From assembly GCA_041665505.1 (NCBI GenBank), contig JBAYIR010000001.1, positions 19,108 through 83,107 on the forward strand: DNA of 64,000 nt, in the 5' to 3' direction. The notes beneath the pieces were generated by a model. The model saw nothing but the letters and a program-made list of their open reading frames with translations, was not told the DNA's origin and ran no database searches. Shown in pieces: positions 2,044-48,401 of the stretch (position 1 is its first letter; each line of letters opens with the position of its first letter). A program made the translations under genes and the position numbers. The DNA is from Patescibacteria group bacterium. Lineage in GTDB: Bacteria > Patescibacteriota > Patescibacteriia > UBA1558 > GWA2-36-10.

Positions 2044-2106
2044 CATAAGGTTAGTCGTTATTTGTCAACCGAAGGAACTGAAACTGAAGGAAAGAGAGGA
2101 CTAGTC

Positions 2107-3633
2107 ATGTTGATAGTAGGAATCGAACCCAAAGCTCCTGGACTGCATATGTTTACGCAAGTGTACACGCCGCGGGCGGGTCTACCGAGGTTACTCCCCC
2201 GAGCTCAGGAACTCGGACATCAGTGCGTCATCTTCTGTGAAGAGTTGCGTCAATCGCAGCTCGATTGGACTCTGGTCTCCAAGGCGGATTTGATCTTGGT
2301 CTCGTCAACCACCTCGACTGCGCCACGCGCTTACCAGCTCGTGGCCAAGGCCAAAAGGCTGAATCCGCGGGCGACTATACTTGGTGGAGGACCTCATTTC
2401 ACTTTCGAGTGTCAGGAGGCGCTGGAGAGTGGTATTGATTTCGTCTTCCGTCATTGGGCAGACAGCAGTTTCTTTGAGTGGCTGGAGTGGTATCAGTCAC
2501 TTGAGGATACTCAGGTGATTAGCGGTGACGATTTGCGTCGCCTGTCAGAAATTGGCGGTTTGGCCTTCATGACGGGCAATCAAGTCCACAAGACGGCTAT
2601 GCCCAGGCAGGTTGACCCTGATTCATGGGCCACGCCTGATTTCCGCTTGGTGACTGGCTACAAGCCAAGAACTCTGACAATGATCACCAGTGAAGGATGT
2701 GATCACAAGTGTGAGTTCTGCTCGGAGTGGACCATGCACGGTGGAAAGTACCGTGTTCGTTCAGCTGAGAGAGTCTTGGCAGACCTTGTTTTTTACCGAA
2801 GAATCTATGGGAGGATTCCGATTTTCTTCGGAGATGACAACTTGGCTGCTGACCAGAAAGACAGCACTGGTCAGGTGACTGTTTCTGGTGTTGATCGTTT
2901 GACACAGCTGTGTCAGATGATCATTGATCATGGTTTGCAGGGTTCATATTCTGGTCAGGTTCGTCTGGCCTTGGCTGACCATCCGGGGGTCTTGGCTTTG
3001 ATGAGCCGAGCGGGCTTTAATCGAGCCTGTATTGGCTATGAATCGATAAACCCCGACAATGCCCAAGCTACGGGCAACAAGCTGGAGTTTGCTCGCATGG
3101 GTGAACAGACAGCTATGTTTCACAAGCATGGTATTGCTGTCCATGCGATGTGGATCATGGGTTTTGATCCTGATACTTTGGCCACCATCGCTGAAACAGT
3201 GAAGGCGGCCATCAACTGGCGGATTGAGACCAACCAATTTATGGTTTTGGTGCCAATTCCTGGTTCACCACTGAGGAAACGTCTAGAAAGAGAGGGGAGA
3301 ATCATTCATTCGGCGGGTTGGGATAAATACGACGGACACCATGTCGTATTCTACCCCAAACTGATGAAGTCTTGGGAACTCCAGGCAGCAGTGATGCTCA
3401 GAGCTATGCCCAAGGTCTACAACCTGGGACAAACCTTGGGCATTTACCTGTCTAGCAATTTCCGTACCTTGGTGAGATGGATTAACCGTCGGGCGCCTCA
3501 TCCTGGTATTGAGTTTCAGAGTCATACCATCACTCTGGTCTTGCGAGTGGTGGGACGTAACATGGTTAGGCGGGTTGGTAAACCCGCTAGAGACTACTTC
3601 GAGGAACTGAGGAGGTCGCCTACCAACAGGTAG
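2107..3633 (+). CDS. B12-binding-domain radical SAM protein (class B rSAM), compositionally foreign (~55% GC)
   Basis: N-terminal B12-binding-like region (ILVSSTTSTAPRAY...ILGGGPHFT) and a radical SAM CxxxCxxC box (SEGCDHKCEFCSE). A strong SD lies 8 nt before the ATG at 2107. The ORF track's TTG start at 2062 lacks an SD. Confidence 0.75.
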   Translation: MLIVGIEPKAPGLHMFTQVYTPRAGLPRLLPRAQELGHQCVIFCEELRQSQLDWTLVSKADLILVSSTTSTAPRAYQLVAKAKRLNPRATILGGGPHFTFECQEALESGIDFVFRHWADSSFFEWLEWYQSLEDTQVISGDDLRRLSEIGGLAFMTGNQVHKTAMPRQVDPDSWATPDFRLVTGYKPRTLTMITSEGCDHKCEFCSEWTMHGGKYRVRSAERVLADLVFYRRIYGRIPIFFGDDNLAADQKDSTGQVTVSGVDRLTQLCQMIIDHGLQGSYSGQVRLALADHPGVLALMSRAGFNRACIGYESINPDNAQATGNKLEFARMGEQTAMFHKHGIAVHAMWIMGFDPDTLATIAETVKAAINWRIETNQFMVLVPIPGSPLRKRLEREGRIIHSAGWDKYDGHHVVFYPKLMKSWELQAAVMLRAMPKVYNLGQTLGIYLSSNFRTLVRWINRRAPHPGIEFQSHTITLVLRVVGRNMVRRVGKPARDYFEELRRSPTNR

Positions 3634-4151: not shown

Positions 4152-4499
4152 TTATTTCTTCAATTCAGCAACAATTTTTTGGAAAGCGGCTGGATCTTGT
4201 TCAGCTAGTTGAGACAATACTTTTCTGTCCAACTCACAGTTTTTGACTTTCATAGCGTGTATAAAAGCAGAATATTTCCAATCCAATTGGTGCAGAGCAG
4301 CATTAAGCTTGGTTTGCCATAATCTACGATTAACTCTTTTTTTATTGCGTCTATCACGCATAGCATGTGTACCAGCATGGAGCACAGCTTCTTTGGCTTG
4401 TTTTATTTTATTCTTACGACCCCAAGTATATCCTTTAGTTTTAGCTAGAAGATTTTTCCTTCTTTTGACATGGGTAGTGCCTCTTTTTACTCTTGGCAT
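4152..4499 (-). CDS. rplT: 50S ribosomal protein L20
   Basis: MPRVKRGTTHVKRRKNLLAKTKGY... is a typical L20 N-terminus. It sits in the infC-rpmI-rplT arrangement. Confidence 0.9.
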   Translation of the reverse strand: MPRVKRGTTHVKRRKNLLAKTKGYTWGRKNKIKQAKEAVLHAGTHAMRDRRNKKRVNRRLWQTKLNAALHQLDWKYSAFIHAMKVKNCELDRKVLSQLAEQDPAAFQKIVAELKK

Positions 4500-4521
4500 A
4501 ATATTTTAGTTTCTTTATAAA

Positions 4522-4716
4522 TTATAGATAAGGTAATAGTTTTTTGACTGCTTTGACATTAACAGGTGATATTTCTTTATCACGTTTTTTGTTTTTAGTA
4601 ACCTTGGAAGATTCTCTAGAATTAAAATGATCTTGTCCACCAGTGCGGATAAGGATTTTCTTTTTGCTAGTTATCTTAACTCTTTTGCTGAGTATTTTTT
4701 TGGTTTTCAATTTCAT
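4522..4716 (-). CDS. rpmI: 50S ribosomal protein L35
   Basis: 64-aa Lys/Arg-rich MKLKTKK... lies between infC and rplT. Confidence 0.85.
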   Translation of the reverse strand: MKLKTKKILSKRVKITSKKKILIRTGGQDHFNSRESSKVTKNKKRDKEISPVNVKAVKKLLPYL

Positions 4717-4728
4717 AGTCTTATGGAA

Positions 4729-5211
4729 TTATTTTTTATTGATCAATACACTTAATATAGCACCTTGTTGTTGTATGTCTTTGTCAACATTATATTCGCC
4801 GTCTAAGTCGGCTACAAATTGTTTTATTACTTCTTTAGCTTTTTCTTTGAAAGTAATAGCTTTTTCACGGCCTTTTAATCTCAATTCTATTTTGACGTCA
4901 TGGCCTTTGGATAAAAATTTTTGTACTTGTTTTTGTTTTACCAACATGTCATGTTGACCAATCTTTAAAGACAATCTAATGCCTTTGGTCTCTAGTTGTT
5001 TGACTTTTTGTTGGCTGCGACTTTGTTGGTATTGGAATTTGCCGTGGTCAATAATTTTACATACTGGCGGTTGGGCTAGGGGAGAGACCTCCACTAAATC
5101 CAAACCTTTTTCAATGGCCAAACTGAGCGCTTGGGCAATTGGCATAACACCTAATTGTTCGTCTTCTGGTCCAATTACTCTAACTTCTACTGCCCGGATT
5201 TGTCTATTCAT
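4729..5211 (-). CDS. infC: Translation initiation factor IF-3 (true start probably a non-AUG codon further upstream)
   Basis: IRAVEVRVIGPEDEQLGVM...GLDLVEVSP...PVCKIIDHGKFQYQ is the IF3 N- and C-domain signature. The ORF begins right at the conserved core, which suggests an upstream AUU/AUA start. Confidence 0.85.
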   Translation of the reverse strand: MNRQIRAVEVRVIGPEDEQLGVMPIAQALSLAIEKGLDLVEVSPLAQPPVCKIIDHGKFQYQQSRSQQKVKQLETKGIRLSLKIGQHDMLVKQKQVQKFLSKGHDVKIELRLKGREKAITFKEKAKEVIKQFVADLDGEYNVDKDIQQQGAILSVLINKK

Positions 5212-5319
5212 CCAATATTTTTTGGCAACGAAGTTTGTTTTGTTTCTTTTGCTGTTTCTAATAAATTTGTTTTAACTTCTAAAATGGAGTTTTAGCAGTC
5301 CTTTAGGGGCTTTTAAAAC

Positions 5320-5707
5320 TGGTGGAGATGAGGGGTATCACACCCCTGTCTGGCAAATGTCCTAATACACTTCTACAAGCTTATTCAATTTTGTGGTTTA
5401 AATTGTTGGCTCTAAAATTGACAAAAAACCAACAACCGAGCTAGTTTTTTTGTTTCAAAATACTTGTACTAACTCCAGGTATTTCTAGCCTGAAAAATAT
5501 GGCGCCTCTAGTCAAGCTCAGGCGGCTTAGCCTAGAAACGGTCGAGGCACAATTTAGGCCAAGACTGGTGCAAAGCTAGGAACTTTGAAAAGTTCTTTTA
5601 CTTTGGCAAAAGTGTTTTCTGCACTTATTTTAGTGTAATTTTTTACGAGATCACGAACTCAACTTGCTATATATCACTTCATCTGACGTCAAATAAAAAA
5701 CATCCCC
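5320..5707 (-). ncRNA. ssrA: tmRNA (SsrA)
   Basis: Minus-strand 5' end is GGGGAUG...UUUGACG. The 3' end has GGAC, a T-arm, CAUCUCC-A-CCA, and an acceptor stem with a G3:U70 wobble (Ala identity). A candidate tag ORF (AENTF...FAPVLA*) ends in TAA. The gene sits 4 nt downstream of the smpB stop. Confidence 0.65.
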
Positions 5708-5711
5708 TTAA

Positions 5712-6164
5712 TTAAAAATTTTTCAATTTTCTTAAAATGTTTCTATTGATATCCTTTCTTTTGATATCTTCTCGTTTGTCAAATTTCCTTTTTCCTTTAA
5801 CTAAAGCAATTTTTACCTTAATTAACCTTCGCGTAGTATACACTGAAACAGGCATTATTGTCAAGCCCTTCTCCTTGGTTTTACTGGATAAATATAGTAT
5901 TTCTTTTTTAGTTAAAAGTAATTTGCGGTTGGCATCTGAATCGTAGTTTTTCATACTTTGTAGAGAAGCTTTGGCATAAATAGGAATATGTACCTTTTTG
6001 ATGTAGGCTTGACCATTTTTAATAGAAATAAAAGCGCCTTTAAGACTAATATGTCTAGTTTTAATAGATTTCACTTCAGCCCCAGTCAAAACTAAACCAG
6101 CCTCAAACTCTTCTAAGTTTTGGAAATTATGATTAAGCTGTTTGTTTATGGCGATTGTAGGCAT
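5712..6164 (-). CDS. smpB: SsrA-binding protein SmpB
   Basis: IAINKQ..NY...EAG..L.G.EVKS...ISLKGA...YIKK..I is conserved SmpB sequence, and the gene is adjacent to the tmRNA. Confidence 0.85.
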   Translation of the reverse strand: MPTIAINKQLNHNFQNLEEFEAGLVLTGAEVKSIKTRHISLKGAFISIKNGQAYIKKVHIPIYAKASLQSMKNYDSDANRKLLLTKKEILYLSSKTKEKGLTIMPVSVYTTRRLIKVKIALVKGKRKFDKREDIKRKDINRNILRKLKNF

Positions 6165-16166: not shown

Positions 16167-16195
16167 TTGACAAAAAATGTTGAATAGAGTATTAA
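16167..16195 (+). promoter_or_regulatory. Sigma70-like promoter TTGACA-17-TATTAA for GC-rich cassette B
   Basis: Direct motif read, followed by an AAGGAGA Shine-Dalgarno at 16233-16239. Confidence 0.45.
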
Positions 16196-16245
16196 TAAAT
16201 AGATTTGTTCCCATCACTGTTTCACCCTGGACAAGGAGACCTGAG

Positions 16246-16698
16246 TTGGAGACTGACAGCAAAAAAGCCAAGAAACCCCTGGTCGAACTCGACATATCGG
16301 TCAGGTATGGCCGCCTGACTGAAAAGCCGGCGCCGACTTATCAGGGCCAGGCGGTCGGCGAGGTTCTCAAGGACTTGCTCACCTCAGGGCCTATTTCGCG
16401 GACTTCTTCTGACATCAGTGTCAGTGTTGACTTCGGTCACAAGATGGTCCATCTGGTCCGTATGCGACTGCTTCGTTCGTCCAGCTTCGTCGGCGCATTC
16501 GGCGTCATCACGGTGGTACTTCGTCCCTTGGCCGTTGGTTTCTGCCATGGCCACGACCAGACCTTCCAGTTTTGCCCGGATGATCGTCTGATTGGCCAGC
16601 GTGGGCAGATCATCAAGCTGACGCTGGGTTACCCCGAATTCAAAAGCGAGACCTGGCACAGGGAGAAGCAGTCACAGGAAGTCAAGCAAGCTTCCTAG
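16246..16698 (+). CDS. Hypothetical protein (~150 aa) of GC-rich cassette B (~58% GC). The TTG start is inferred from the SD, and the coding strand is not fully certain.
   Basis: The ORF frame is continuous with the ORF-track ORF 16177..16698. AAGGAGA lies 6 nt upstream of a TTG. No family was recognised. A 91-aa antisense ORF (16384..16659) also exists. Confidence 0.35.
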   Translation: METDSKKAKKPLVELDISVRYGRLTEKPAPTYQGQAVGEVLKDLLTSGPISRTSSDISVSVDFGHKMVHLVRMRLLRSSSFVGAFGVITVVLRPLAVGFCHGHDQTFQFCPDDRLIGQRGQIIKLTLGYPEFKSETWHREKQSQEVKQAS

Positions 16699-21867: not shown

Positions 21868-22905
21868 TCACATGCGTTTGGGCAGTTTGAGTTCTATACC
21901 GCCCTCTGGCATGCCACCACCACTGCAACAGTTGGAAGCAGGGATGATCAAGAGCTGGCCTCGATGACCTTGTCCTTTTTGTTCGAAGGGACGCGATTCA
22001 TTTACTTGCCACACCGTTGCATTTGTTGGTTTTTCGCTACGTAGCCAGCTGAGAGCTGGAAAGCCATCTCCACATTTCCAGTTAGCGAAATGTTCGGCTA
22101 TGCTGGTTTCATCAAAATAGAGTGCCGGATCTTGAATGTGCAGAGAGATATGACGCATGTGATTTGGTCTGAACTTGTCACTGCTAGTGCCTTCCCGCCA
22201 GCAGGGTTGACCACGAAAAGCTCTAGCCGGGTAGACTTTTGCGTATCCGTTGTCAGGATGGAAAACAATCACCCAGTTGGTTGACAATATCTTCGTGCCG
22301 TCATCACTGACAGCTACTGCCTGGTTGAAGTCCTTTTCAGCCTTACTGCGAGTAGCTGCAATTTTTTGATCCATGAGTTGGCACATGATATCTCGCGACT
22401 GCTGCCACTTGTTACCACTGCGGTACCAGCTACCATAAAGGCAGTAGAGCAAGCCATGGGGCCAGAAGCCTTCACTGATGCCATCATTTCTCTGATTGAA
22501 TGTCAGGAACATCCGATCGTCTTCCTTACCGCTGACAATTATCAAACAACATGCCGTTCCTACATATAGTTTGACGTCACGGAGTCGGTGCATTATAGCC
22601 AGCAGTGGTTCTAGTTTTTCAAGCCATTCCATCATACTATTAGATTCCACTTTAGGGTCAAAGGGGAACCACATTGGATCAGCACAGTCGAGTAGCAATT
22701 TTCTCATATCATGCTCTTCGACTACGTCACAGAGCAAGGTAGATCCCAGATATTTGGACCACATCTCATGATCTGGGTGAGGGGATTGCCGCTCTTGTTT
22801 AAGCCAATCAGCGATATCGCGACGGCGAAACAGGTTGTCTTCAGCAAAGCGATTGAGCACGAAATCCTTACGGATTTCAGACAGGGGTTTAGTGAAAAGA
22901 GCCAT
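21868..22905 (-). CDS. Hypothetical 345-aa protein of cassette C (~48% GC, Cys/Trp-rich); no family recognised
   Basis: An AGGAGG SD sits 8 nt upstream of ATG (MALFTKPLSEIRK...). This is shorter than the ORF-track ORF, whose first Met lacks an SD. The promoter TTGACA-N18-TGATTAAAT lies at 22965-22996. Confidence 0.6.
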   Translation of the reverse strand: MALFTKPLSEIRKDFVLNRFAEDNLFRRRDIADWLKQERQSPHPDHEMWSKYLGSTLLCDVVEEHDMRKLLLDCADPMWFPFDPKVESNSMMEWLEKLEPLLAIMHRLRDVKLYVGTACCLIIVSGKEDDRMFLTFNQRNDGISEGFWPHGLLYCLYGSWYRSGNKWQQSRDIMCQLMDQKIAATRSKAEKDFNQAVAVSDDGTKILSTNWVIVFHPDNGYAKVYPARAFRGQPCWREGTSSDKFRPNHMRHISLHIQDPALYFDETSIAEHFANWKCGDGFPALSWLRSEKPTNATVWQVNESRPFEQKGQGHRGQLLIIPASNCCSGGGMPEGGIELKLPKRM

Positions 22906-22964
22906 GGGTATCAACCTCCTAAAGTTGGTGCAGTAGTTGTCTAAACTACCGCACATACCCACAG

Positions 22965-22996
22965 TCATTTAATCAGAATATTACATTATTTGTCAA
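22965..22996 (-). promoter_or_regulatory. Sigma70-like promoter (TTGACA plus an extended -10 TGATTAAAT) for cassette C
   Basis: Direct motif read on the minus strand. Confidence 0.4.
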
Positions 22997-34551: not shown

Positions 34552-34821
34552 CTAGTCGATCCTGAAAACTTGTGCATATTCTTCGTTCGGTAGTATGGTC
34601 AACAATTCCATAGGAATCATGGAATCTATGGCCATGCCCTTCATACGAACAGGCACTTCCAGCTTGAAGCTGGTAACGAGGTTGTCCTTGCCCAGCCGCA
34701 TCTCAACTACCTGCGGTGGACCCAGCATAGTGCCTTCAGCACCAGCCGGCCAGGCCTTGAAGCTGACAGCCAGCCGTATCGGCTGGTGCCAGAATGGTTC
34801 TGTGATGGCTCGAACTAGCAT
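34552..34821 (-). CDS. Hypothetical 89-aa protein (cassette D, third gene)
   Basis: GAAAGGAAAG SD lies 5 nt upstream of ATG. GC-rich. No family recognised. Confidence 0.5.
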   Translation of the reverse strand: MLVRAITEPFWHQPIRLAVSFKAWPAGAEGTMLGPPQVVEMRLGKDNLVTSFKLEVPVRMKGMAIDSMIPMELLTILPNEEYAQVFRID

Positions 34822-34853
34822 CTTGGCTTTCCTTTCGTTTGCAGTGGCGGGGC

Positions 34854-35111
34854 TTAGTCATCAAAATCATCGTAGTACGGATTGACGAACATCAAGGGCC
34901 CCCCGAAAGAGGGGCACAGTTCGATCCGTTCGACCTTTATTCCCTGAAGCTGTTCCCACGGTGTTTGACGGGGCCGAGCCTCCTCCTGAGCCTCGAGTTC
35001 CTTCACGCGCCTCACGATGCATTGGCCCAAGATGTTTGCGATCTGCAATCGCATTGCATTCAGCTCATCAACTTCGGTTTCGGTAACATGTTTTGCTCCT
35101 TGATCCGGCAT
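34854..35111 (-). CDS. Hypothetical 85-aa acidic protein with a C-terminal YYDDFDD (cassette D, second gene)
   Basis: GGAAGGGG SD before the ATG. The start codon lies 24 nt after the upstream gene's stop. Confidence 0.5.
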   Translation of the reverse strand: MPDQGAKHVTETEVDELNAMRLQIANILGQCIVRRVKELEAQEEARPRQTPWEQLQGIKVERIELCPSFGGPLMFVNPYYDDFDD

Positions 35112-35136
35112 GTTTCACCCCTTCCGTTTTCGGCAA

Positions 35137-35562
35137 CTAGGCCGGGTCAAACAATTCGACTAGTCCCTCGATCGTGGCTACAAGAGTTTGGAGTCCAGCT
35201 AGAGTGAACATCAGGATTGCAGCCAGGAAACAGCCAAAGGGTAGAGCTAGACCAAACCAGCTCACGCCAATTAGCAGTTCCAGGACGGAGAAGGCGTCTT
35301 TGCTCTGGTCGAGCCTGGAGATAGCGAGAAAAGTCCCACCGGCAACTGACAGAAGTGGCCACCAGGAGTAGTCCAGAGTCATCATCCATCCGGACGTGCT
35401 TATCAGCACCACGGCGATGACTTGCCGGCGTTTGAACATGGGGTGTGAGAAACTGAGTCCCGCGATCATCAGGCTCAGACCCGCCACAACACTATTGTCG
35501 TGGAACATAGCCACAAACAGCATGGCAATGCCAGCTAGGACACTCAGTAGGGCGTTTTTCAT
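35137..35562 (-). CDS. Hypothetical 4-TM membrane protein (cassette D, first gene)
   Basis: GGAAGAAAGGGAAAG SD lies before the ATG (MKNALLSVLAG...). There are four hydrophobic helices. Confidence 0.55.
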   Translation of the reverse strand: MKNALLSVLAGIAMLFVAMFHDNSVVAGLSLMIAGLSFSHPMFKRRQVIAVVLISTSGWMMTLDYSWWPLLSVAGGTFLAISRLDQSKDAFSVLELLIGVSWFGLALPFGCFLAAILMFTLAGLQTLVATIEGLVELFDPA

Positions 35563-35902
35563 GGTCTTTCCCTTTCTTCCTTGGGGGATCACTGGCTTTA
35601 GCCAGACTTTGCTAGGCGTTTTTAGCACACAAGGCTCTATCTACTATGGGCTTTGACCCAATTTACAAATGAATTGTACAGTGACTTTAACAATTAAATA
35701 TAATCTGATTATCAGCCTTTTGTCAATTACTGGCTTAAAGGGCTTGATTTATTTAAATTTTTATGTTAAAGTATTGCTGCTTAATTAATCACAAGTATTT
35801 TCATTGATTATTTGATTAACCTTCCCCAAATAAAAAAAGGGGCATTCAAATAGGAAAATACGGGTAAGCCCGCTTGTAGCGAGGCTAAAGAAAGGAAAAA
35901 AT

Positions 35903-40270: not shown

Positions 40271-40370
40271 TTTTTATATTCAAACTAAGAGACGTTCCTA
40301 GCGGGGCGTCTTTTCATGTATTAGACAAAAATTATCTTTGTGTTACAATGGAATAATTGAGGCAAATAGT

Positions 40371-41753
40371 ATGAATATTCGTTTATATAATAGTTTGAGT
40401 AAAACCAAGGAGGAATTTAAGCCCATCAAAAAGAAAGAGGTGGGTCTTTATACTTGTGGCCCAACTGTTTATGACTATCCGCATATTGGCAATTTAATGC
40501 CTTATATTGTTTGGGATGTTTTGAAAAAAGTGTTAAAAGTGGATGGTTATAAAGTCAAACATATCATGAATATTACAGATGTTGGACATTTAACTTCAGA
40601 TGCTGATCAGGGAGAAGATAAATTGGTCAAAGCCAGTCGTGAGTCTGGTCAAAATGCTTGGCAGATTGCAGAATTTTTTATCAAAGTTTTTCGTAATAAT
40701 CTATCCAGCTTAAATATTGATGAGCCAAGCAAATTTATCCGAGCGACTGAAAGTATCAAAGAACAAATAGAATTTGTGCGTTTGTTGGATCAAAAAGGCT
40801 ATTTATATAAGATTTCAGATGGTATGTATTTTGATACATCCAAGATAGCTGATTATGGTCGTTTGGCTAATTTGGCCAATGTTGAACTACAAGAAGGTGC
40901 CCGGGTAGAAAAAAATGAGGAAAAAAGGAATCCAAGTGATTTTGCGGTTTGGAAATTTTCTCCAGAAGACAGAACTAGAGATATGGAATGGGAATCTCCT
41001 TGGGGTCTTGGTTTTCCAGGCTGGCATTTGGAGTGTTCAGTGATGAGTCGTTTGGAGCTAGGGGATACTTTTGATATTCATACTGGTGGCATGGATCATT
41101 TGACCGTCCATCATCCCAATGAAATGGCACAATCACAGGCTGTGACTGGTAAATTGCAAGCCAATTATTGGTTACATAATGCTTTTATTAAATATGAAGG
41201 TGGGAAAATGTCCAAGTCTAATGGCACTTTTATTACTTTAGAAGAATTAAGGGCCAAGGGTTTTTCACCAATGTCATATCGATTTCTTATTTTACAAAAT
41301 CATTACCGTAAGCCACTTAATTTTTCTTTAGAATCATTACAAGCTGCTCAAAATGGTTTGGCTGCTATTGTCCGAGCTATAGCTTTTTATCCTAAAGCCA
41401 AAGGCGGCTGTAAAGAATTGGAAGCAGAATTTTATGAGGCTGTTAGTGATGATTTAAACACCTCAAAAGCTTTGGCAGTAGTGCAGAAAGTAATTGAAGC
41501 TGATTGTAAAGACAATGCCAAGCTAGCCACTATTTTGAAGATGGATGAGGTTTTGGGTTTGCGTTTGGAAGGTTTAGTAAAAAATGCTTTGGATATTACT
41601 GGGGAGGCAGTAGTCATTTTAGAAGAAAGAATTAAAGCCAGAGATAATAAAGATTGGCCGTCAGCTGATAGATTGAGAAACAAATTAACGGCTCTAGGAG
41701 TAGAAGTACAGGATACTCCAGATGGACAAAGAGCTATTCAAATAAAATTTTAA
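40371..41753 (+). CDS. cysS: Cysteine--tRNA ligase
   Basis: HIGN (HIGH) and KMSKS motifs. The start is taken at MNIRLYN, which has an upstream TGAGG SD. Confidence 0.9.
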   Translation: MNIRLYNSLSKTKEEFKPIKKKEVGLYTCGPTVYDYPHIGNLMPYIVWDVLKKVLKVDGYKVKHIMNITDVGHLTSDADQGEDKLVKASRESGQNAWQIAEFFIKVFRNNLSSLNIDEPSKFIRATESIKEQIEFVRLLDQKGYLYKISDGMYFDTSKIADYGRLANLANVELQEGARVEKNEEKRNPSDFAVWKFSPEDRTRDMEWESPWGLGFPGWHLECSVMSRLELGDTFDIHTGGMDHLTVHHPNEMAQSQAVTGKLQANYWLHNAFIKYEGGKMSKSNGTFITLEELRAKGFSPMSYRFLILQNHYRKPLNFSLESLQAAQNGLAAIVRAIAFYPKAKGGCKELEAEFYEAVSDDLNTSKALAVVQKVIEADCKDNAKLATILKMDEVLGLRLEGLVKNALDITGEAVVILEERIKARDNKDWPSADRLRNKLTALGVEVQDTPDGQRAIQIKF

Positions 41754-41851
41754 TTAGTGTCTAGTATAGTAAATAAGTATGCGGATACTGATAGTATTCC
41801 GCATTTTTTTCTTTATTTATATAAAAATGTTTGTTATAATGCTCTATATAT

Positions 41852-42934
41852 ATGAAAAATGAATCAAAAATAATTATAATTAAAGTGGGTACTAATATGC
41901 TCACGGCCAATGGTGATAAATTGAATCGTAGTCTTATTTTAGAATTGGTTAAACAGTTAGTCAGTTTACATAATAAAGGATATAAGCCAGTACTCGTAAC
42001 TTCTGGAGCTGTAGCAGCTGGCAGAGAAGTGCTCAAATTATCAAATGGTATAGAAAGAATTACACAACGTCAAATTTATGCTGCTGTTGGTCAGGCCCGT
42101 CTGATGCATGAGTATGAAAAAATTTTTCAAAAACATGGAATACTTGTCGGTCAAGCACTATTAACCAGAGAAGATTTTTCAGATAGAATTAGATATGACA
42201 ATGCCCTCCATACTTTAAATGGCTTATTAGATAATGGTGCTATTCCAATTATCAATGAGAATGATGTGGTAACTATACAAGAGCTTTCTTTTGGAGATAA
42301 TGATGTATTAGCCGCCGCTACTGCTATTGCTTTAAATGCAGATAAACTGTTGTTATTAACCAATCAAGACGGAGTGATGACAGCCAACCCAGAAAAAAAT
42401 AAAGAAGCAGCTAAATTAATTCATGAAGTTAGGGATATAAACGAAATTTTTTCTGTTATTTCTGATAATTCTAGTTCTAGCCATGGTGTTGGGGGGATGT
42501 ATTCAAAAGTTAATGCCGCACAGCTAGCAGCTAATGCTGGAATTCCCACTTGGATTGCCAATGGTTTGCAGCCAGAAAATATTGGGGCAATTATAGAAGG
42601 CAAAAAGACAGGCACTAATCTTATTGCTAGACCAAATAAACTGTCTGAAAGAGAGCGCTGGATTCTATGTGCCAAAAATGCGGCTGCTGGTATTATTATA
42701 GATGATGGAGCGGCTCAAGCATTACGTCAAAATAAAAGTCTTTTGATGGTCGGAGTAAAAAAGATTAAAGGATCTTTTGACGCCAGAGAAATTGTTGAGG
42801 TGTTAGATCAATTTGAGCACATTGTTGCCTATGGCATAGTCAACTATTCTTCCAATGAATTAACTCAAGCGCTTGATTTTCCTCAATCATTAAAAAAAGA
42901 AGTAATTCACGTAAATAATTTACATTTAGCATGA
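41852..42934 (+). CDS. proB: Glutamate 5-kinase with a C-terminal PUA domain
   Basis: IIKVGTN.L...G.L........L..Q...L...G...V.V.SGAVA.G. Confidence 0.85.
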   Translation: MKNESKIIIIKVGTNMLTANGDKLNRSLILELVKQLVSLHNKGYKPVLVTSGAVAAGREVLKLSNGIERITQRQIYAAVGQARLMHEYEKIFQKHGILVGQALLTREDFSDRIRYDNALHTLNGLLDNGAIPIINENDVVTIQELSFGDNDVLAAATAIALNADKLLLLTNQDGVMTANPEKNKEAAKLIHEVRDINEIFSVISDNSSSSHGVGGMYSKVNAAQLAANAGIPTWIANGLQPENIGAIIEGKKTGTNLIARPNKLSERERWILCAKNAAAGIIIDDGAAQALRQNKSLLMVGVKKIKGSFDAREIVEVLDQFEHIVAYGIVNYSSNELTQALDFPQSLKKEVIHVNNLHLA

Positions 42935-43743
42935 GAAAATATAATATCACAATTATTGGTTGTGGAAACATGGGCACCGTTATTATGGAGCGTTTACTTA
43001 GCGCTGGCTATGTTACAAAAAAAACACTCACTATAGTTGATAATAATCCTTTGACTTTGGCTAAGCTAAAAAAAACTGGAATAAAAGTGGAAAATGATTT
43101 AGTCAAAGCAGTGGCTAAAGCAGAAATAATTTTTTTGGCCGTCAAACCCCAACAATATCAGCTGATAGCTAATGATTTAAAAGCTAAATTAAGAGCCGGT
43201 CAGATAGTAATTTCAATAATGGCTGGCGTTACATACAAAGCTTTGGCTAAGCGTTTGTCACACAAAAATATTGTCCGGACTATGCCCAACTTAGCAGCTA
43301 AAATAGGGGAAAGTATTAGCGTCTGGTACACACCAGAAGAATTTGTCAAAAAAAATAAAAAAACTATTGAAAATTTATTATCTGTAATTGGTGATTCACT
43401 ACAAGTAAAAAATGAAGCTATGCTTGATAAAACGACGGCCATCAGTGGTAGTGGTCCAGCTTATTTTTTCTATATAGCAGAATTATTGGAGCAACAAGCT
43501 TGTGATTTTGGCTTCACAGCTGAAGAAGCAAATAAATTAGTAAGTCAGACTTTTTATGGTGCCGCACAACTTTTAGATAATGATATTCGATCATCTAAAG
43601 ACCTTAGACAAGCAGTAACATCAAAAAACGGCACAACAGAGGCAGCTCTAAAAAAATTGGGTCCGCAGTTTGTAAAGATTTGGAAAGGTGCTATAAATGC
43701 TGCCTATCAAAGGGCAAAAGTAATTTCAAAAGAATATGAATAA
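42931..43743 (+). CDS. proC: Pyrroline-5-carboxylate reductase
   Basis: I.IIG.GNMG N-terminal Rossmann fold and a C-terminal P5CR dimerisation region. The gene overlaps proB by 4 nt. Confidence 0.85.
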   Translation: MRKYNITIIGCGNMGTVIMERLLSAGYVTKKTLTIVDNNPLTLAKLKKTGIKVENDLVKAVAKAEIIFLAVKPQQYQLIANDLKAKLRAGQIVISIMAGVTYKALAKRLSHKNIVRTMPNLAAKIGESISVWYTPEEFVKKNKKTIENLLSVIGDSLQVKNEAMLDKTTAISGSGPAYFFYIAELLEQQACDFGFTAEEANKLVSQTFYGAAQLLDNDIRSSKDLRQAVTSKNGTTEAALKKLGPQFVKIWKGAINAAYQRAKVISKEYE

Positions 43744-44995
43744 ATCAATATTACAAATAGGAAAACAAGCCCAACTGGCTTCACGTCAATTTTCTCAGAC
43801 TTCAAATATAAATAAAAATGCCGTATTGAAGACATTGGCAAAGTTAATTCAAATTAAAGAAGCGGAAATTCTAAAAGCCAATCGCCAAGATGTAATGCGA
43901 CAAGGTGAAAGGCATCCTATGACTGATCGTCTGATGCTAAATAAAGAGCGTTTAAAAGAAATTAGACGAAGTCTTTTGGCTGTAGCACAGTTGCCAGACC
44001 CAGTTGGTGAAGTAGTAGAAACTAGCAAAGAAGCCAACGGCCTAAATATCTCTAGAGTCAGAGTACCTATTGGAGTACTAGGGGTGATTTATGAATCAAG
44101 ACCAAATGTAACAGTAGAAATATCCAGTTTGGCTTTAAAAGCTGGTAATGTTGTTATTCTAAAAGGAGGGAAAGAAGCAAATTCTACTAACCAAGTATTG
44201 GTAAATTTAATTCAAGGCGCTTTGACAAAACATGGTTTTTCAAAATTTACTGTCCAATTACTAGATGCTTCGCAAAGGTCTCTGGTGATAGAGCTTCTTC
44301 GCTTAAATAAATATGTTGACGTTTTAATACCACGTGGCAGTAGAAGATTAATTGATTTTGTGCGTGATAATGCTAGTGTACCAGTTATTGAAACTGGTGC
44401 TGGAGTTTGTCATACATATGTAGAAAAATCAGCTGCTATTATAAAGTCTGCCAAAATTATTGAAAATGCTAAGACTCAACGTCCCACTGTTTGCAATGCT
44501 TTAGATACTTTGGTGTTAGATCAAGCTATCACTCAAAAATTTTTACCAGTAGTAGCCCAGCGACTGAAAAAATACAAAGTAATTATCAGAGCTGATATGC
44601 TCAGTCATAAAGTTTTAGAGAAGTGTTATCCAAAGGACTTATTGAAAAAAGCCATAGAAAAAGATTTTGGTAAAGAATTTCTTGGATTGGAAATGTCAAT
44701 AAAAACTGTAAAAAATTTTACAGAAGCTTTTGAGTTTATTCAAAATCATACTTCCGGACATTCAGAAGCAATTTTAACAAAAAATAAAAAAATTGGAGAA
44801 CAATTTTTGAAAACAATTGATGCCGCCGCTGTGTATGTAAATACTTCCACTCGCTATACTGACGGCTTTCAATTTGGTCTGGGGGCAGAAGTGGGTATTT
44901 CTACTCAAAAATTACACGCTCGAGGACCAATTGGTTTGAGAGAATTAACTAGCGTTAAATGGGTAGTGCACAGTAATTGGAAAATTAGAATTTGA
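43736..44995 (+). CDS. proA: Gamma-glutamyl phosphate reductase
   Basis: Aldehyde dehydrogenase fold with VIYESRPNVTV..S.LALK.GN.VILKGG. Confidence 0.85.
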   Translation: MNKSILQIGKQAQLASRQFSQTSNINKNAVLKTLAKLIQIKEAEILKANRQDVMRQGERHPMTDRLMLNKERLKEIRRSLLAVAQLPDPVGEVVETSKEANGLNISRVRVPIGVLGVIYESRPNVTVEISSLALKAGNVVILKGGKEANSTNQVLVNLIQGALTKHGFSKFTVQLLDASQRSLVIELLRLNKYVDVLIPRGSRRLIDFVRDNASVPVIETGAGVCHTYVEKSAAIIKSAKIIENAKTQRPTVCNALDTLVLDQAITQKFLPVVAQRLKKYKVIIRADMLSHKVLEKCYPKDLLKKAIEKDFGKEFLGLEMSIKTVKNFTEAFEFIQNHTSGHSEAILTKNKKIGEQFLKTIDAAAVYVNTSTRYTDGFQFGLGAEVGISTQKLHARGPIGLRELTSVKWVVHSNWKIRI

Positions 44996-45117
44996 TTACT
45001 ATATAATTTATTTTAAGCTGTTTCAAATAATTTAAAATATCATTTCTCTAAATAGGGGAGTGATTTTTAGATTATTATTTTTTAGTAAGTATTATTTCAT
45101 TTATATAAGCCGTCGCT

Positions 45118-45146
45118 TGACACTACGCCGTCTATTAATTATACTC
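45118..45146 (+). promoter_or_regulatory. Sigma70-like promoter TTGACA-17-TATACT for cassette E, with a ~120-nt structured leader
   Basis: Direct motif read. The leader contains the hairpin gacaggc-tttat-gcttgtc. Confidence 0.45.
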
Positions 45147-45266
45147 TTATTGTTACTATGTGTTTTTTTGACAGTTTAATATGTCTAAGTGTTTTGCTCT
45201 ATGAGCAAAAGGTGACAGGCTTTATGCTTGTCTCTAAACCGTCCCTTCAACCTAGGAAAGGAGGAT

Positions 45267-46715
45267 GTGCACGTTTCGCCATATCCTAGTCCATCGGCTT
45301 CACACGCTTCACCAAAACAAACTAGGATGCTTGGTGCATCCAGAATGGAGCTGCAGATGATTACCCGTCAGGACAACCCTAGCATGTCTGCTCAGGCAGA
45401 CGTTATCGTCATTGGTGGGGGCGCCAACGGTGCTCTTATCACCTTTGAGCTCGCCAAGCGTGGCTACCAAGTCATCACCCTGGAAAAGGGTGCACTTGGT
45501 AACGGATCCAGCAGTCGTTCCGCGGCTTGTATCCGCGCTCAGTTCGGCGATCCTCGTAACGTCCTCGGCATGGTGTATGCCGAGTGGTTCTTCGAGAACT
45601 TCTACTCGATCTTGGGTGTTCCCGAAGAGGAGCAGAATGAGTGGCTGTTTGAGCAAAACGGCTACCTGTTCCTCTATGAGGATCCTGGTCAGATCGAAGA
45701 TTCTGCCAAGAGCAAGGCTTCTGCCAAGGCATGGCTCGAGGCACTGAAAGCTGCTCACATGCAACAGAAGCTTGGTTTGCCGGTTGAGATTCTCGATCCC
45801 TCTACTGTCCACGCCCGCTACCCGCACATCAACCCTGAACTTTTGATCGGCGCGACCTTCTGCCCCACCGACGGTTTCCTCAACCACGACCTCATCTACC
45901 TCAGGGGATTCGAGATGGCCCAGCGGCACTACGGTGCCCAGGTCTTCACGAACACCGAGGTGATCGGCGCTACTCGTGCCAAAGACGGCACGATCACTAC
46001 TCTGCACACCACAAGTGGTGACTTCTCGGCCAAGTGGATTGTCAACGCGACCAATGCGTGGGCGCCACGGCTGAGCAAGTTGCTGGGCGGCATGGAACTG
46101 CCCATCACACCCTTTAAGCGGTATTTGTACTGGGTACAGCCGCACTCGTCCGTGTTTTCGGACGATAGTTGGAAGAAACTACCCTTCACCATCTTCGGGA
46201 TGGGTCCGGACAGAGGATCCTACTGTCGGCCGCATCACAACGAGTTGATGTACGGTTGGGCTCACGAAGCTGAACCTGAACCGCAGTTCAGCGACGAAGA
46301 CCAGGACAGGATCGGTGCTGGTTTCCATCCCGATTCGGCAAGTGGCGACCGAGACTACTGGCTGGAGTTCCGTCTCAACGTCAACGACTTCTCGGAGTTG
46401 TTGGCCAACACTGGTCGGGCTCGGGCAACTGCCGGGTACTACGGCCAGACGCCGGATCATCAGCCAATCATCGATGTGGATACGCAAGTGTCCAACCTGA
46501 TCCATGCGGTCGGATTCTCTGGCCACGGCTTGATGATGTCTCCGGTGACTGCTCAGGTGGTCGCCGCCCTCGTCGATGGCCGGGGCGAGATCGTGAACAG
46601 GCAGATTTGTCTGCCACCGATGTTCAGGCCCGAGATGACCAAGCTCATGCTCGATTGCAGTCACTTCTCGGCCACGAGGGACTTCTACGCTCAGAAGGAA
46701 GGAGCTTACATCTAG
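45267..46715 (+). CDS. FAD-dependent oxidoreductase, DAO family (glycine/sarcosine/D-amino-acid oxidase-like); GC-rich (~58%)
   Basis: DVIVIGGGANGALITFELAKRGYQVITLEKG is a GxGxxG Rossmann motif, and the C-terminus has a GFSGHGLM motif. A GTG at 45267 lies 4 nt after AGGAGG. Alternative starts are 45228 (ORF track) and the ATG at about 45357. Confidence 0.75.
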   Translation: MHVSPYPSPSASHASPKQTRMLGASRMELQMITRQDNPSMSAQADVIVIGGGANGALITFELAKRGYQVITLEKGALGNGSSSRSAACIRAQFGDPRNVLGMVYAEWFFENFYSILGVPEEEQNEWLFEQNGYLFLYEDPGQIEDSAKSKASAKAWLEALKAAHMQQKLGLPVEILDPSTVHARYPHINPELLIGATFCPTDGFLNHDLIYLRGFEMAQRHYGAQVFTNTEVIGATRAKDGTITTLHTTSGDFSAKWIVNATNAWAPRLSKLLGGMELPITPFKRYLYWVQPHSSVFSDDSWKKLPFTIFGMGPDRGSYCRPHHNELMYGWAHEAEPEPQFSDEDQDRIGAGFHPDSASGDRDYWLEFRLNVNDFSELLANTGRARATAGYYGQTPDHQPIIDVDTQVSNLIHAVGFSGHGLMMSPVTAQVVAALVDGRGEIVNRQICLPPMFRPEMTKLMLDCSHFSATRDFYAQKEGAYI

Positions 46716-46742
46716 ACATGTGTTCATTACAGTTTCGGACCA

Positions 46743-46808
46743 GGGGGTCTACAGCACATAAGCGATTGTTTACAATCGTGTGTCTGTAGCCCCCTGAATT
46801 TTTTTATT
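46743..46808 (+). terminator. Long imperfect palindrome plus T-run, acting as a terminator
   Basis: cagggggtctacagcaca...cgattgt-tt-acaatcg...tgtgtctgtagccccctg followed by aattttttta. Confidence 0.5.
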
Positions 46809-46848
46809 CTAAATATTATACTATATTGATTATTTACGAGGCTTTGTA

Positions 46849-46877
46849 TTGACAAATTGTATTTTTTACGATAATTT
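46849..46877 (+). promoter_or_regulatory. Sigma70-like promoter (TTGACA ... GATAAT) for the small cassette E gene
   Basis: Direct motif read. An AGGAGG SD lies at 46927-46932. Confidence 0.45.
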
Positions 46878-46941
46878 TTATATTACGTTCCAAAATTGGG
46901 GCGTTTGCTAGGAAACAGTGCATTTAGCAGGAGGCAATTCA

Positions 46942-47271
46942 ATGCAGGCCGACAAAATTATCGGTGAGACCACCCGTGTGTTCCCTCGACTGCGCTGCGT
47001 GGCTATCAAGCTGGCACCGAACGACACGGTTCTCAGGGAGGGGATGACCGTTTCCTTCCATCGCGAGGCTAGCGATATGGGAGCTTTGGGCTTCCATGAC
47101 AGCACCCACAAGATCACCTCGATCGAGGTCAACCGGACGCCGGTGGCTGAGGCAACTCATCAGGATGGTATCTGTGCTGTTTGGATCGGTGGTTCGGTAG
47201 ATGATTTGCCGCCTCGTCGCTGCATCGTCTCGGTCATCAACGACCGGGCACCTGATCAGCCCACGACTTGA
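46942..47271 (+). CDS. Hypothetical 109-aa protein, partner of the FAD oxidoreductase
   Basis: AGGAGG lies 9 nt before ATG (MQADKIIGETTRV...). GC-rich. No family recognised. Confidence 0.55.
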   Translation: MQADKIIGETTRVFPRLRCVAIKLAPNDTVLREGMTVSFHREASDMGALGFHDSTHKITSIEVNRTPVAEATHQDGICAVWIGGSVDDLPPRRCIVSVINDRAPDQPTT

Positions 47272-47296
47272 CAAGTTGTTCGAGTCGTGGTAAGAT
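47268..47296 (+). promoter_or_regulatory. Putative tRNA-operon promoter TTGACA-17-TAAGAT
   Basis: Direct motif read. It overlaps the hairpin cacgact-N14-agtcgtg at the end of the preceding CDS. Confidence 0.4.
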
Positions 47297-47312: not shown

Positions 47313-47389
47313 GCGCCGTTAGCTCAATTGGTTAGAGCACTAGGCTTACAAGCTAGAGGTTGAGGGTTCAAGTCCCTCACGGCGTACCA
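47313..47389 (+). tRNA. tRNA-Val(TAC)
   Basis: Manual cloverleaf. Acceptor GCGCCGT/ACGGCGT (G1:U72), D-arm TAGCTCAATTGGTTAGAGC, anticodon loop CTTACAA, T-arm GAGGGTTCAAGTCCCTC, and an encoded CCA. Confidence 0.75.
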
Positions 47390-47400
47390 CACAATTTGGT

Positions 47401-47476
47401 GGGGTTATAGCTCAATTGGCAGAGCATCAGACTCAAAATCTGAATGTTAGGAGTTCAAATCTCCTTAACCCCACCA
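47401..47476 (+). tRNA. tRNA with anticodon CAA and a short (5-nt) variable arm. The overall sequence resembles tRNA-Trp(CCA) with C35 changed to A.
   Basis: Manual cloverleaf. Acceptor GGGGTTA/TAACCCC, anticodon stem TCAGA/TCTGA, loop CTCAAAA, variable arm ATGTT, T-arm AGGAGTTCAAATCTCCT, discriminator A, encoded CCA. Confidence 0.65.
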
Positions 47477-47494
47477 CTGTTCTTCTCTACAGAA

Positions 47495-47570
47495 CCCTAT
47501 ATAGCTCAACTGGACAGAGCCCCTGGATTTCTTCTCAGGAGCCGTGGAGGTTCGAATCCTCCTATAGGAG
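47495..47570 (+). tRNA. Non-canonical tRNA-like gene (Arg-TCT-like layout) with an 8-nt anticodon loop, a 6-nt variable region, a C1:A72 mismatch and no encoded CCA; possibly a pseudo- or recoding tRNA
   Basis: A canonical D-arm (TAGCTCAACTGGACAGAGC) and T-arm (GGAGGTTCGAATCCTCC) are present. The anticodon stem CCTGG/TCAGG encloses ATTTCTTC. Confidence 0.4.
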
Positions 47571-47576
47571 TTCTGG

Positions 47577-47614
47577 GGGCCCGCGTTGCACAAACGCGGG
47601 CCCTAAAGTTTTTT
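47577..47614 (+). terminator. Rho-independent terminator after the tRNA cluster
   Basis: gggcccgcg-ttgcacaaa-cgcgggccc followed by taaagtttttt. Confidence 0.65.
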
Positions 47615-47663: not shown

Positions 47664-48401
47664 ATGCAAGTCAACAAAAAACAAATAGAATTTTTGCTCA
47701 AGTTAAAAAAGAAAAAATATCGTGATGAACACCAAAAATTTTTGTTTGAAAACCCCAAAGTAATTTGGGAAGAATTTTCCAATCCTTTATTGGATTCTGT
47801 TTATGTGACGGATAATTTTTATAAAGAAAATGAAGATCGGATGGTTTTTAAAAACATCTATCGTCTTTCCGAAAAAGATTTGGGCAAAATATCCAATCAA
47901 GTGAATCCTCTTGGTATGGTAGCACTGTTTAATATGCCTCAGGCCAAAAAATTTATTTTTAAATCAAAAAACGTTTTGCTTTTAGATGGTATTTCCGATC
48001 CAGGCAACATGGGTACTATTATTCGCACGGCTGATTGGTTTGGTTTCAATCATGTATTTTTGGGCAATAATTGTGTAGAAATTTATAATCCCAAAGTAGT
48101 AGCAGCTAGTATGGGTTCTATTTTCAATGTTAGTTTAAATGCCGATGTTAATTTAAAATCATTAATCAATGACCTCAAAGAAGAAGGCTATCAGATTGTA
48201 GTGACTGATTTGATGGGTGATGAATCTGATATAGATAGGCGGGCTAATATCGCTCTAGTGATTGGCAATGAAGCCAAGGGAGTAGATAGAAAATTAATTG
48301 AGTTGGCTGATAAGCGTTTTAAGATTATGAAGTCTGGTAAGGCTGAATCACTTAATGCTGCTGTAGCCGCTGGTATAGTGATGAATAAAATAAAATTTTA
48401 A
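47664..48401 (+). CDS. SpoU/TrmH-family RNA 2'-O-methyltransferase
   Basis: LLLDGISDPGNMGTIIRTADWFG......G.......PKVV.ASMGS are SPOUT motifs. Confidence 0.75.
   Translation: MQVNKKQIEFLLKLKKKKYRDEHQKFLFENPKVIWEEFSNPLLDSVYVTDNFYKENEDRMVFKNIYRLSEKDLGKISNQVNPLGMVALFNMPQAKKFIFKSKNVLLLDGISDPGNMGTIIRTADWFGFNHVFLGNNCVEIYNPKVVAASMGSIFNVSLNADVNLKSLINDLKEEGYQIVVTDLMGDESDIDRRANIALVIGNEAKGVDRKLIELADKRFKIMKSGKAESLNAAVAAGIVMNKIKF

Follow-up and report, generated by a model that had tools for sequence, protein, structure and literature searches.

What do a gene for a flavoenzyme and a small open reading frame (ORF) have in common, when both are GC-rich, both lie on the same strand of an AT-rich genome, and a tRNA cluster follows directly? 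This question is raised by positions 45118-47271 of a 64,000-nucleotide (nt) stretch of DNA from a Patescibacteria group bacterium (assembly GCA_041665505.1, contig JBAYIR010000001.1, positions 19,108 to 83,107 of the forward strand), hereafter the window. An earlier note, made from the letters alone, had answered that they form one cassette, a flavin adenine dinucleotide (FAD)-dependent oxidase of the DAO family with a dedicated small partner, placed as an island at a tRNA gene. This interpretation is mostly wrong. In the interval, a mobile proline module reaches its 3' end and a conserved unit related to translation begins, and we put at roughly 0.7 the probability that these are two independent units, the first with a flavoenzyme resembling the β subunit of archaeal proline dehydrogenase (PDH), the second a separate, translation-linked unit made of the small gene and the tRNAs. 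Relatives' DNA used for synteny, alignment, and rate comparisons is designated L001-L067. The features of the two genes are the following.

45117-45145, plus strand: oxidase promoter, sigma-70-type, TTGACA-17-TATACT (11 of 12 matches; hexamers identical in L065)
45146-45356, plus strand: oxidase 5' leader, ~210 nt, with no recognised regulatory RNA
45325-45341, plus strand: 6-bp hairpin GGATGC-loop-GCATCC, ~15 nt before the start codon, kept in L065 and L002
45357-46715, plus strand: FAD-dependent amine oxidoreductase of 452 amino acids (aa), Pfam DAO, PDH-β-like and proline-operon-linked (the oxidase)
46741-46806, plus strand: intrinsic terminator of the oxidase, a ~25-bp hairpin with a U-run (minimum free energy -36.6 kcal/mol, z = -6.43)
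46849-46875, plus strand: promoter-like site of the small gene, TTGACA-15-GATAAT, kept in L005, L006, and L065
46942-47271, plus strand: small gene, encoding a 109-aa putative β-barrel protein (nonsynonymous to synonymous rate ratio, dN/dS; HMMER family; predicted fold; synteny)

That the first gene encodes a DAO-family FAD enzyme of the sarcosine-oxidase-like branch, as the earlier note had it, was confirmed. The protein matches Pfam PF01266 over its full length (profile positions 1-353 of 353, E 1.1e-57, 196.6 bits vs a cut-off of 27.9), and the FAD motif DVIVIGGGANG is located at 45399-45431, with its dinucleotide-binding GGGANG part (GxGxxG) at 45414-45431. The top match among all PDB sequences is 1Y56_B (E 3e-35, 125 bits), which is ~55 bits ahead of the next enzyme and is followed by glycine oxidase and monomeric sarcosine oxidase (MSOX) with E-values of ~1e-18. 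We take 1Y56 chain B to be the catalytic β subunit of the Pyrococcus horikoshii L-proline dehydrogenase (PDH1). The two proteins have the motifs GSxxRxxxxIRxQF, AGYYxxTPD, and GFSGHG[LF]MM[SA]P in common. The Gly of AGYY aligns with the covalent-flavin Cys of MSOX (Cys315). In amino-acid oxidases such as MSOX an Arg binds the carboxylate, and the residue at the aligned position is kept. On these alignments, the oxidase falls in the branch whose members (sarcosine oxidase β, MSOX, and archaeal PDH β) oxidise the C-N bond of secondary amino acids.

Archaeal PDH β is the closest of the known systems to which the enzyme can be compared. They share the same FAD fold, the above motifs, and the lack of Cys at the covalent-flavin position of MSOX, and the proline-centred gene context of the oxidase suggests the same substrate class. 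On the other hand, identity is only ~30% over the aligned parts, and the oxidase is ~70 residues longer, with an insertion at ~263-349 and a C-terminal extension. Its hosts are bacterial, mesophilic, and ultra-small, it sits in a biosynthetic proBCA/proS operon and not in a catabolic one, and no α (or γ/δ) gene lies near it in the lineages viewed. A structure of the P. horikoshii enzyme exists, cited in PMC4741190. The MSOX/SolA/PIPOX group resembles the oxidase in consisting of single-polypeptide DAO-family enzymes acting on secondary amines, and MSOX can be aligned with it over the full length (E ~2e-17). Among NCBIfam models, N-methyl-L-tryptophan oxidase scores highest. However, identity to this group is ~20%, the covalent-FAD Cys is replaced by Gly, and scores are far under the cut-offs (257-480 bits). 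No NCBIfam equivalog was reached, with scores vs cut-offs, in bits, of 117 vs 257 for N-methyl-L-tryptophan oxidase, 85 vs 480 for monomeric sarcosine oxidase, 76 vs 251 for ThiO, 65 vs 529 for SoxB, 21 vs 600 for D-proline dehydrogenase, and 40 vs 600 for pipecolate oxidase. Finally, the heteromeric SoxBDAG and opine (OoxAB/NoxAB) oxidases have a catalytic subunit in the same superfamily (hence the 65 bits of the soxB model), but the locus contains no SoxA, SoxD, SoxG, or OoxA-like gene, and the small protein is unrelated to them.

The strongest evidence on what the oxidase does is its gene context. All oxidase orthologues of at least 57% identity, together with a second group of 44-48% identity, lie beside or inside proline genes, in ~10 lineages and in the following arrangements.

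Window and L065: proBCA-oxidase, the oxidase being the 3' end of the block
L001-L004: proBCA-proS-oxidase, then tRNA-Pro(UGG, GGG, CGG)
L008 and L054: proBCA-proS-oxidase
L007 and L010: oxidase-proBCA
L019, L037, and L058: proB-proC-proS-oxidase-proA (with a 9-nt proS-oxidase gap in L037)

In a neighbour-joining tree the pro-linked oxidases form one cluster. We found no paper on proline-operon-linked DAO enzymes in the literature. Because of this context, and because of the likeness to PDH β, we take the oxidase to act at the node of proline and pyrroline-5-carboxylate (P5C). It might instead use a substrate unrelated to proline, e.g. glycine in the manner of ThiO, sarcosine, or D-amino acids, with the pro genes being adjacent through mere hitch-hiking. 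The sub-threshold NCBIfam matches to N-methyltryptophan oxidase, monomeric sarcosine oxidase, and ThiO would fit such an enzyme, as would ~35 homologues from Ktedonobacterales/Chloroflexia (45-49% identity) that have no pro neighbours. However, linkage to pro genes persists through at least four gene orders, many different flanks, and one position inside the operon, and the best solved relative, by the margin given above, is a subunit of a proline dehydrogenase. We therefore regard hitch-hiking as unlikely. Even more improbable is that the oxidase modifies RNA in the manner of the MnmC FAD domain, with tRNA-Pro as its target. It does adjoin proS and three tRNA-Pro genes in L001/L002, and NCBIfam returns weak MnmC matches (41-45 bits), but these are far under cut-offs of 174-540 bits and a methyltransferase domain is absent. 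Linkage to proB, proA, and proC is also steadier than linkage to proS or tRNA-Pro, and the conserved residue aligned with the carboxylate-binding Arg argues against an RNA substrate.

The oxidase orthologue is a fixed companion of proline genes in related Patescibacteria-type genomes. In the reading that we prefer, the enzyme would share the proline/P5C node with ProC, ProA, and prolyl-tRNA synthetase (ProRS). Its non-covalent FAD would take a hydride from L-proline or a close derivative such as an N-alkyl-proline, the product would be P5C or proline, and the reduced flavin would be re-oxidised by O2 or another acceptor. As a separate observation on these loci, a GC-rich stretch of ~750 nt lies 3' of proS-oxidase and the three tRNA-Pro genes at 3860-4650 of L002 (equivalent to ~7780-8600 of L001). 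It has a promoter-like site, a terminator-like end, and poor overlapping ORFs, with no Rfam match at gathering threshold, and may be a structured RNA or an unannotated gene.

Where does the oxidase gene begin and end? Sequence comparison places the start most likely at ATG 45357, giving 452 aa, with TTG 45228 and ATG 45327 less likely. The deposited annotation (MFA6466304.1, 462 aa) begins at ATG 45327, which is within the conserved hairpin. ATG 45357 and its GGAG are kept in L065, a 92%-identical relative, and ATG 45345 is not; 452-aa gene calls are present in the oxidase protein cluster, and the N termini of homologues align at ATG 45357. Because of this start, the leader measures ~210 nt and not ~120 nt as first described. 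One hairpin in it (45325-45341) recurs, with an identical 6-bp stem and differing loops in L065 and L002, and covariation is absent. A regulatory role or riboswitch, which had also been proposed, found no support: a search of the leader against Rfam at E <= 1 matched only tRNAs in the region, and the leader folds no better than shuffled sequence (z = -1.64). In L065 the leader carries a 45-nt insertion. Two other ideas about it were dropped. A 30-codon upstream ORF (45265-45357) coupled to the start codon was rejected, its ATG being missing in L065, and descent of the leader from the 3' end of a donor proS gained no tblastn or alignment support. At the other end, a hairpin homologous to the terminator at 46741-46806 follows the oxidase orthologue in L002 and L065. 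Because this strong terminator separates the two genes, the oxidase and the small gene are not one cassette. The first unit would thus run from the promoter at 45117 through the ~210-nt leader and the coding sequence at 45357-46715 to the terminator at 46741-46806.

The small gene has start signals of its own. As described earlier, an AGGAGG Shine-Dalgarno sequence lies 7 nt upstream of its ATG. Its promoter-like site has good hexamers, but it is not the consensus promoter that had been claimed, because the spacer is 15 nt; a promoter scan with 16-18-nt spacers does not return it. The gene also occurs independently of the oxidase, being found without it in five lineages (L005/L006, L062, L063, L064, and L066/L067). 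A search with the small-protein profile matched only the window, L065, and the loci fetched through the small protein itself; in ~55 other oxidase loci, taken with 8 kb of flanking DNA, it had no match. The protein has no Pfam family even at E <= 10, SoxD/SoxG types included, no NCBIfam family, and no significant sequence match in PDB. Conserved orthologues in relatives, which the earlier note had named as evidence that would refute a foreign origin, exist for each of the two genes separately, and the pair was seen only in the window and L065. What speaks for a two-component amino-acid or opine oxidase in an island at tRNA-Val is that the genes are adjacent on one strand, that both are GC-rich in an AT-rich genome, and that a tRNA cluster lies 3'. 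With a strong terminator and a separate promoter between the genes, independent occurrence in all relatives but L065, and a small protein that is unlike any oxidase subunit and has a predicted translation-factor barrel fold, a dedicated partnership no longer holds. The indel described below, which takes in proBCA and leaves out the small gene, and the failure to find att repeats or an integrase, count further against it, making this the least probable of all the explanations that we considered.

We then turned to what has been inserted at this site. The order across the locus is GAPDH, cysteinyl-tRNA synthetase (CysRS), proB, proC, proA, oxidase, 109-aa ORF, three tRNAs, SpoU methyltransferase, and a seven-transmembrane (7TM) histidine kinase, with these features around the two genes (GC3, GC content at third codon positions).

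40338-41753, plus strand: CysRS, Pfam tRNA-synt_1e, E 2.4e-94; left backbone flank of the inserted block
41852-42934, plus strand: proB, ORF for glutamate 5-kinase with a PUA domain (orthologues in related loci are AA_kinase + PUA), GC3 0.22
42931-43743, plus strand: proC, ORF for pyrroline-5-carboxylate reductase (orthologues are F420_oxidored + P5CR_dimer), GC3 0.24
43736-44995, plus strand: proA, γ-glutamyl phosphate reductase, 419 aa, Pfam Aldedh, GC3 0.21
~41754-46815, plus strand: proB-proC-proA-oxidase block with its own regulatory sequences, ~5.1 kb (alignments and tblastn gene order; approximate boundaries)
47664-48401, plus strand: SpoU/TrmH-family RNA methyltransferase, Pfam SpoU_methylase, E 3.3e-37; right backbone flank

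A 419-aa ProA orthologue directly follows proC in all related loci. The layout of L065 is that of the window (CysRS-proBCA-oxidase-small gene-tRNAs-SpoU). L005/L006, by comparison, have CysRS-small gene-tRNAs-SpoU, and the more distant L066/L067, L063, and L062 have CysRS-small gene-(tRNA)-SpoU, without pro genes or oxidase. The block is therefore present in the window and L065, and absent at this site in L005/L006, L062, L063, and L066/L067. The flanks are closely related: SpoU is 96% (L005) and 97% (L065) identical to the window, and CysRS is 95% identical in both. The 3' end of CysRS aligns with L005 and L065 through the stop codon, directly after which L005 diverges, and homology between the window and L005 resumes ~20 nt upstream of the promoter of the small gene. 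Synteny in the closest relatives thus shows that the variable unit is the ~5.1 kb proBCA-oxidase block and that the small gene belongs to an older backbone. The oxidase is the last gene of this block, which no lineage but this one has between CysRS and the small gene.

These junctions also bear on the island. A tRNA-Val(TAC) does start 41 nt past the small gene, but the 3' edge of the indel is ~500 nt before it, so the block does not abut the tRNA. Around the cassette and the indel junctions, we found no direct or target-site repeats and no att-like duplication of part of the tRNA beyond chance AT-rich or terminator T-runs. Likewise, an integrase or transposase was not found at the junctions or among the neighbouring genes (GAPDH, CysRS, proBCA, SpoU, and histidine kinase). 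PADLOC defence-system models matched neither the small protein nor the oxidase, and likewise neither SpoU nor any of the remaining GC-rich ORFs.

A foreign origin had been proposed as well, and here the evidence divides. The oxidase and the small gene do look compositionally foreign, and the oxidase is part of a segment that some close relatives have and others lack, but conserved orthologues exist for each. They have a GC content of 0.57-0.58 and GC3 of 0.70 and 0.66, respectively, vs a GC content of 0.35 and a median GC3 of 0.26 for the window; their neighbours have GC3 of 0.21-0.29. The GC3 distribution in the window is bimodal, with 55 of 63 ORFs not exceeding 0.40 and the other eight, which form five islands, at 0.49-0.68. 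One explanation of such values would be that the oxidase alone was recently acquired or replaced from a GC-rich relative carrying the same proline module, its GC content being an undecayed relic. Indeed, the adjacent proBCA genes have GC3 of 0.21-0.24, GC-rich genomes with proBCA-proS-DAO do exist (L008 and L054, 61% GC), and horizontal transfer is common in Patescibacteria (PMC12455944). In addition, the protein as such does not require GC-rich codons, since its orthologues in L019 and L058 are close to their hosts in composition.

The evolutionary history of the oxidase does not bear this out. Its dN follows that of ProA and ProB in four comparisons (L003, L007, L010, and L008), and its tree agrees with the order of ProA/ProB identities. 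Between the window and L065, where synonymous sites are unsaturated, its dS is 0.47, equal to that of its neighbours (0.37-0.56), and its GC3 is 0.70 and 0.69, respectively. When third-position changes since the split of these two lineages were polarised with three outgroups, a procedure with a known parsimony bias that works against the result, the GC-to-AT share in the oxidase was 0.41-0.58 vs 0.69-0.82 predicted from the flanking pro genes (p = 3e-5 to 7e-3). Since there is no GC-to-AT excess, the oxidase looks compositionally stationary and not decaying. The small gene is GC3-elevated in three lineages of the conserved backbone, and it too has the dS and dN history of the genes around it. 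We consequently find a recent transfer of the oxidase doubtful, although it is the rival to which we give most weight. On the evidence of these sequences, composition suggests a foreign origin and evolutionary history does not, and the high GC content of the two genes looks maintained and not like a decaying relic. Candidate causes for the oxidase are repeated replacement from GC-rich sister lineages (L008 and L054), or gene-specific selection or gene conversion.

Some other genes have a similarly deviant composition. Four further GC-rich islands, with GC3 of 0.49-0.64, lie in the window at 2062-3633 (plus strand), 16177-16698 (plus strand), 21868-22968 (minus strand), and 34552-35628 (minus strand); one is a B12-binding radical SAM protein, and the rest have no Pfam or PADLOC match. 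They may share the cause of the GC-richness of the oxidase. In L001, ProRS (4232-5956) has GC3 of 0.58 vs 0.29 for proA, and an arginine deiminase-family gene and arginyl-tRNA synthetase at 5355-7516 of L062 have 50-54% GC vs ~33%. Mosaic composition seems general in this group.

If the small protein is not a subunit of the oxidase, what is it? That the ORF is a gene at all may be questioned, as the tRNA operon could simply have a GC-rich leader that codes for nothing and is open on both strands by chance. Both strands are indeed open in the window and in L005, and the protein, as said above, has no match in Pfam or NCBIfam and none by sequence in PDB. However, 26 of 49 substitutions are at codon position 3, and dN/dS in the sense frame is 0.35 vs L005 and 0.14 vs L065, vs 1.26 in the antisense frame. 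The Shine-Dalgarno sequence is ideal, the protein has relatives down to 31% identity, and its fold is predicted with confidence. A chance ORF is thus a very remote alternative. The antisense ORF itself (111 aa, 46939-47274, minus strand) covers the whole small gene and is open in L005 too. Because of its dN/dS of 1.26, we regard it as most likely a side effect of the GC-rich gene on the sense strand.

By exhaustive HMMER searching, the family comprises 14 relatives of 98-144 aa, in which Cys19 and Cys78 are invariant, His52 is conserved, and Cys94 is mostly conserved. Large repeat proteins returned by the same search (P0129, P0130, P0134, and P0135) were discarded as spurious, being Ig/cadherin-type repeat proteins. 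An AlphaFold2 model computed from seven family members reached a predicted local distance difference test score (pLDDT) of 83.4 and a predicted template modelling score (pTM) of 0.76; from two sequences only, pLDDT was 37. The top Foldseek matches to this model, with probability 1.0, E-values of 1e-4 to 1e-2, and template modelling scores up to 0.81 on target, are the C-terminal domain of U32 peptidases (4HE5/4HE6) and the barrels of EF-Tu, eIF5B, and aIF2-γ. In BFVD, the fold matches are giant-virus translation factors only, and the top five PDB matches of the sequence profile are all eIF5B domain IV, at E ~0.3. The small protein is therefore predicted to have a β-barrel fold of the EF-Tu domain II/eIF5B domain IV/U32 C-terminal type. 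It further resembles the barrels of translational GTPases in lying among translation genes (CysRS, tRNAs, and SpoU methylase). It differs from them in being a stand-alone protein of 109 aa that lacks a GTPase or catalytic domain, has no significant Pfam similarity, and has its own conserved Cys/His positions. On the sole basis of the predicted fold and the gene context, its most likely ligand would be RNA or the acceptor end of tRNA. The 109-aa product would be a stand-alone barrel of translation-factor type, and it is not an oxidase subunit. The protein evolves faster than its neighbours, being 82% identical where CysRS/SpoU are 95-96% identical, 63% where CysRS is 80-85% and SpoU 86%, and 33% where both are 74-78%, with changes concentrated in two patches (residues ~40-50 and 81-88).

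Downstream of the small gene, the unit continues into the tRNA cluster, with the following features.

47268-47296, plus strand: promoter-like site TTGACA-17-TAAGAT with a TG extension, overlapping the stop codon of the small gene, kept in L005, L065, and L067
47313-47389, plus strand: tRNA scaffold 1, anticodon TAC (Val), G31-G39 mismatch, starting 41 nt past the stop codon of the small gene
47401-47476, plus strand: tRNA scaffold 2, anticodon CAA on a class-I Phe-type body, with no long variable arm
47495-47570, plus strand: tRNA scaffold 3, 8-nt anticodon loop, conserved 1-72 mismatch, no encoded CCA (Rfam 42 bits)
47576-47613, plus strand: intrinsic terminator closing the small gene-tRNA unit, 12-bp stem (nine GC pairs) with a T-run

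No terminator is predicted between the small gene and 47576, and the small gene and the three tRNAs are probably on one transcript. The second unit would therefore consist of the promoter at ~46849, the coding sequence at 46942-47271, an internal promoter at 47268, three tRNA genes, and the terminator at 47576. It is part of the older CysRS-small gene-tRNA-SpoU backbone. The cluster lies at 47313-47570 of the window, 8109-8365 of L065, 1411-1667 of L005, and 921-1170 of L067. The three scaffolds are kept in these loci (and in L006), but their anticodon loops differ.

Scaffold 1: window TAC (with a mismatched closing pair), L065 CAT, L005 CTT, L067 a 4-nt loop
Scaffold 2: window CAA, L065 GAA, L005 GAA, L067 CCA
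Scaffold 3: window, L065, and L005 an 8-nt loop, L067 a 6-nt loop

ARAGORN reads a 4-nt anticodon for scaffold 3 in L005, L006, and L065. In this scaffold the 1-72 mismatch is retained with compensatory changes in the acceptor stem. Unlike the anticodon loops, the acceptor, D, and T arms of the RNAs are kept between relatives. These three RNAs do not look like ordinary housekeeping tRNAs. A scan of viral contigs with scaffold 1 gave no match, a pattern search with the four-sequence alignment returned two metagenome loci only, and we found no paper on odd tRNAs in the candidate phyla radiation (CPR). A bolder possibility is that the 109-aa barrel and the three cloverleaf RNAs are one dedicated module with a function other than ordinary decoding. 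Use of the RNAs via their acceptor end, with the barrel as partner, fits the kept arms and 1-72 mismatch together with the varying anticodon loops. Such a module would also need to explain the upheld GC-rich codon usage of both the small gene and the oxidase, and we think it improbable, slightly more so than an oxidase with a substrate unrelated to proline.

Several points weigh against the two independent units as we picture them. To transcribe an enzyme that degrades proline together with ProRS and the genes that make proline looks self-defeating, and for that reason the true substrate of the oxidase may be a precursor or analogue of proline. The likeness to PDH β is family-level, all NCBIfam equivalog scores being far under their cut-offs. 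Archaeal L-proline dehydrogenase β works with an α subunit, an NADH dehydrogenase-type flavoprotein, and no PDH α gene adjoins the oxidase in the window, L001, L007, L008, L010, L037, or L065 (a statement about neighbours only, the rest of the genome not having been searched). At the junctions, repeats or mobility genes that could explain the movement of the block were not found. As for the second unit, the proposed RNA binding draws on a fold predicted from seven sequences, the eIF5B matches at E ~0.3, and gene context, and co-transcription of the small gene with the tRNAs is deduced only from the lack of a predicted terminator between them. The analysis directly yielded the family membership, the linkage between genes, the indel, a promoter for each gene with a terminator between them, and the predicted fold; our proposals for substrate, electron acceptor, and RNA binding are inferred.

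Amino-acid biosynthesis is usually missing in Patescibacteria (CPR). That a mobile proline module is invariably accompanied by an uncharacterised PDH-like flavoenzyme, and often by ProRS and tRNA-Pro, suggests that a step at the proline/P5C node has gone unrecognised. The superfamily of the oxidase is known, but this member of it is new, and so is its consistent gene context. Its candidate roles are salvage of proline derivatives, a proline/P5C redox cycle that re-oxidises NAD(P)H together with ProC, and removal of toxic proline analogues; catabolism was also considered. Reading the small protein as an oxidase subunit is no longer warranted; it defines a conserved, fast-evolving, translation-linked family that has no current annotation. 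What would surprise a specialist are the maintained GC-rich composition and the free-running anticodon loops. If true in more genomes, upheld GC3 and differing anticodon loops would be relevant to the evolution of composition and decoding where genomes are reduced.

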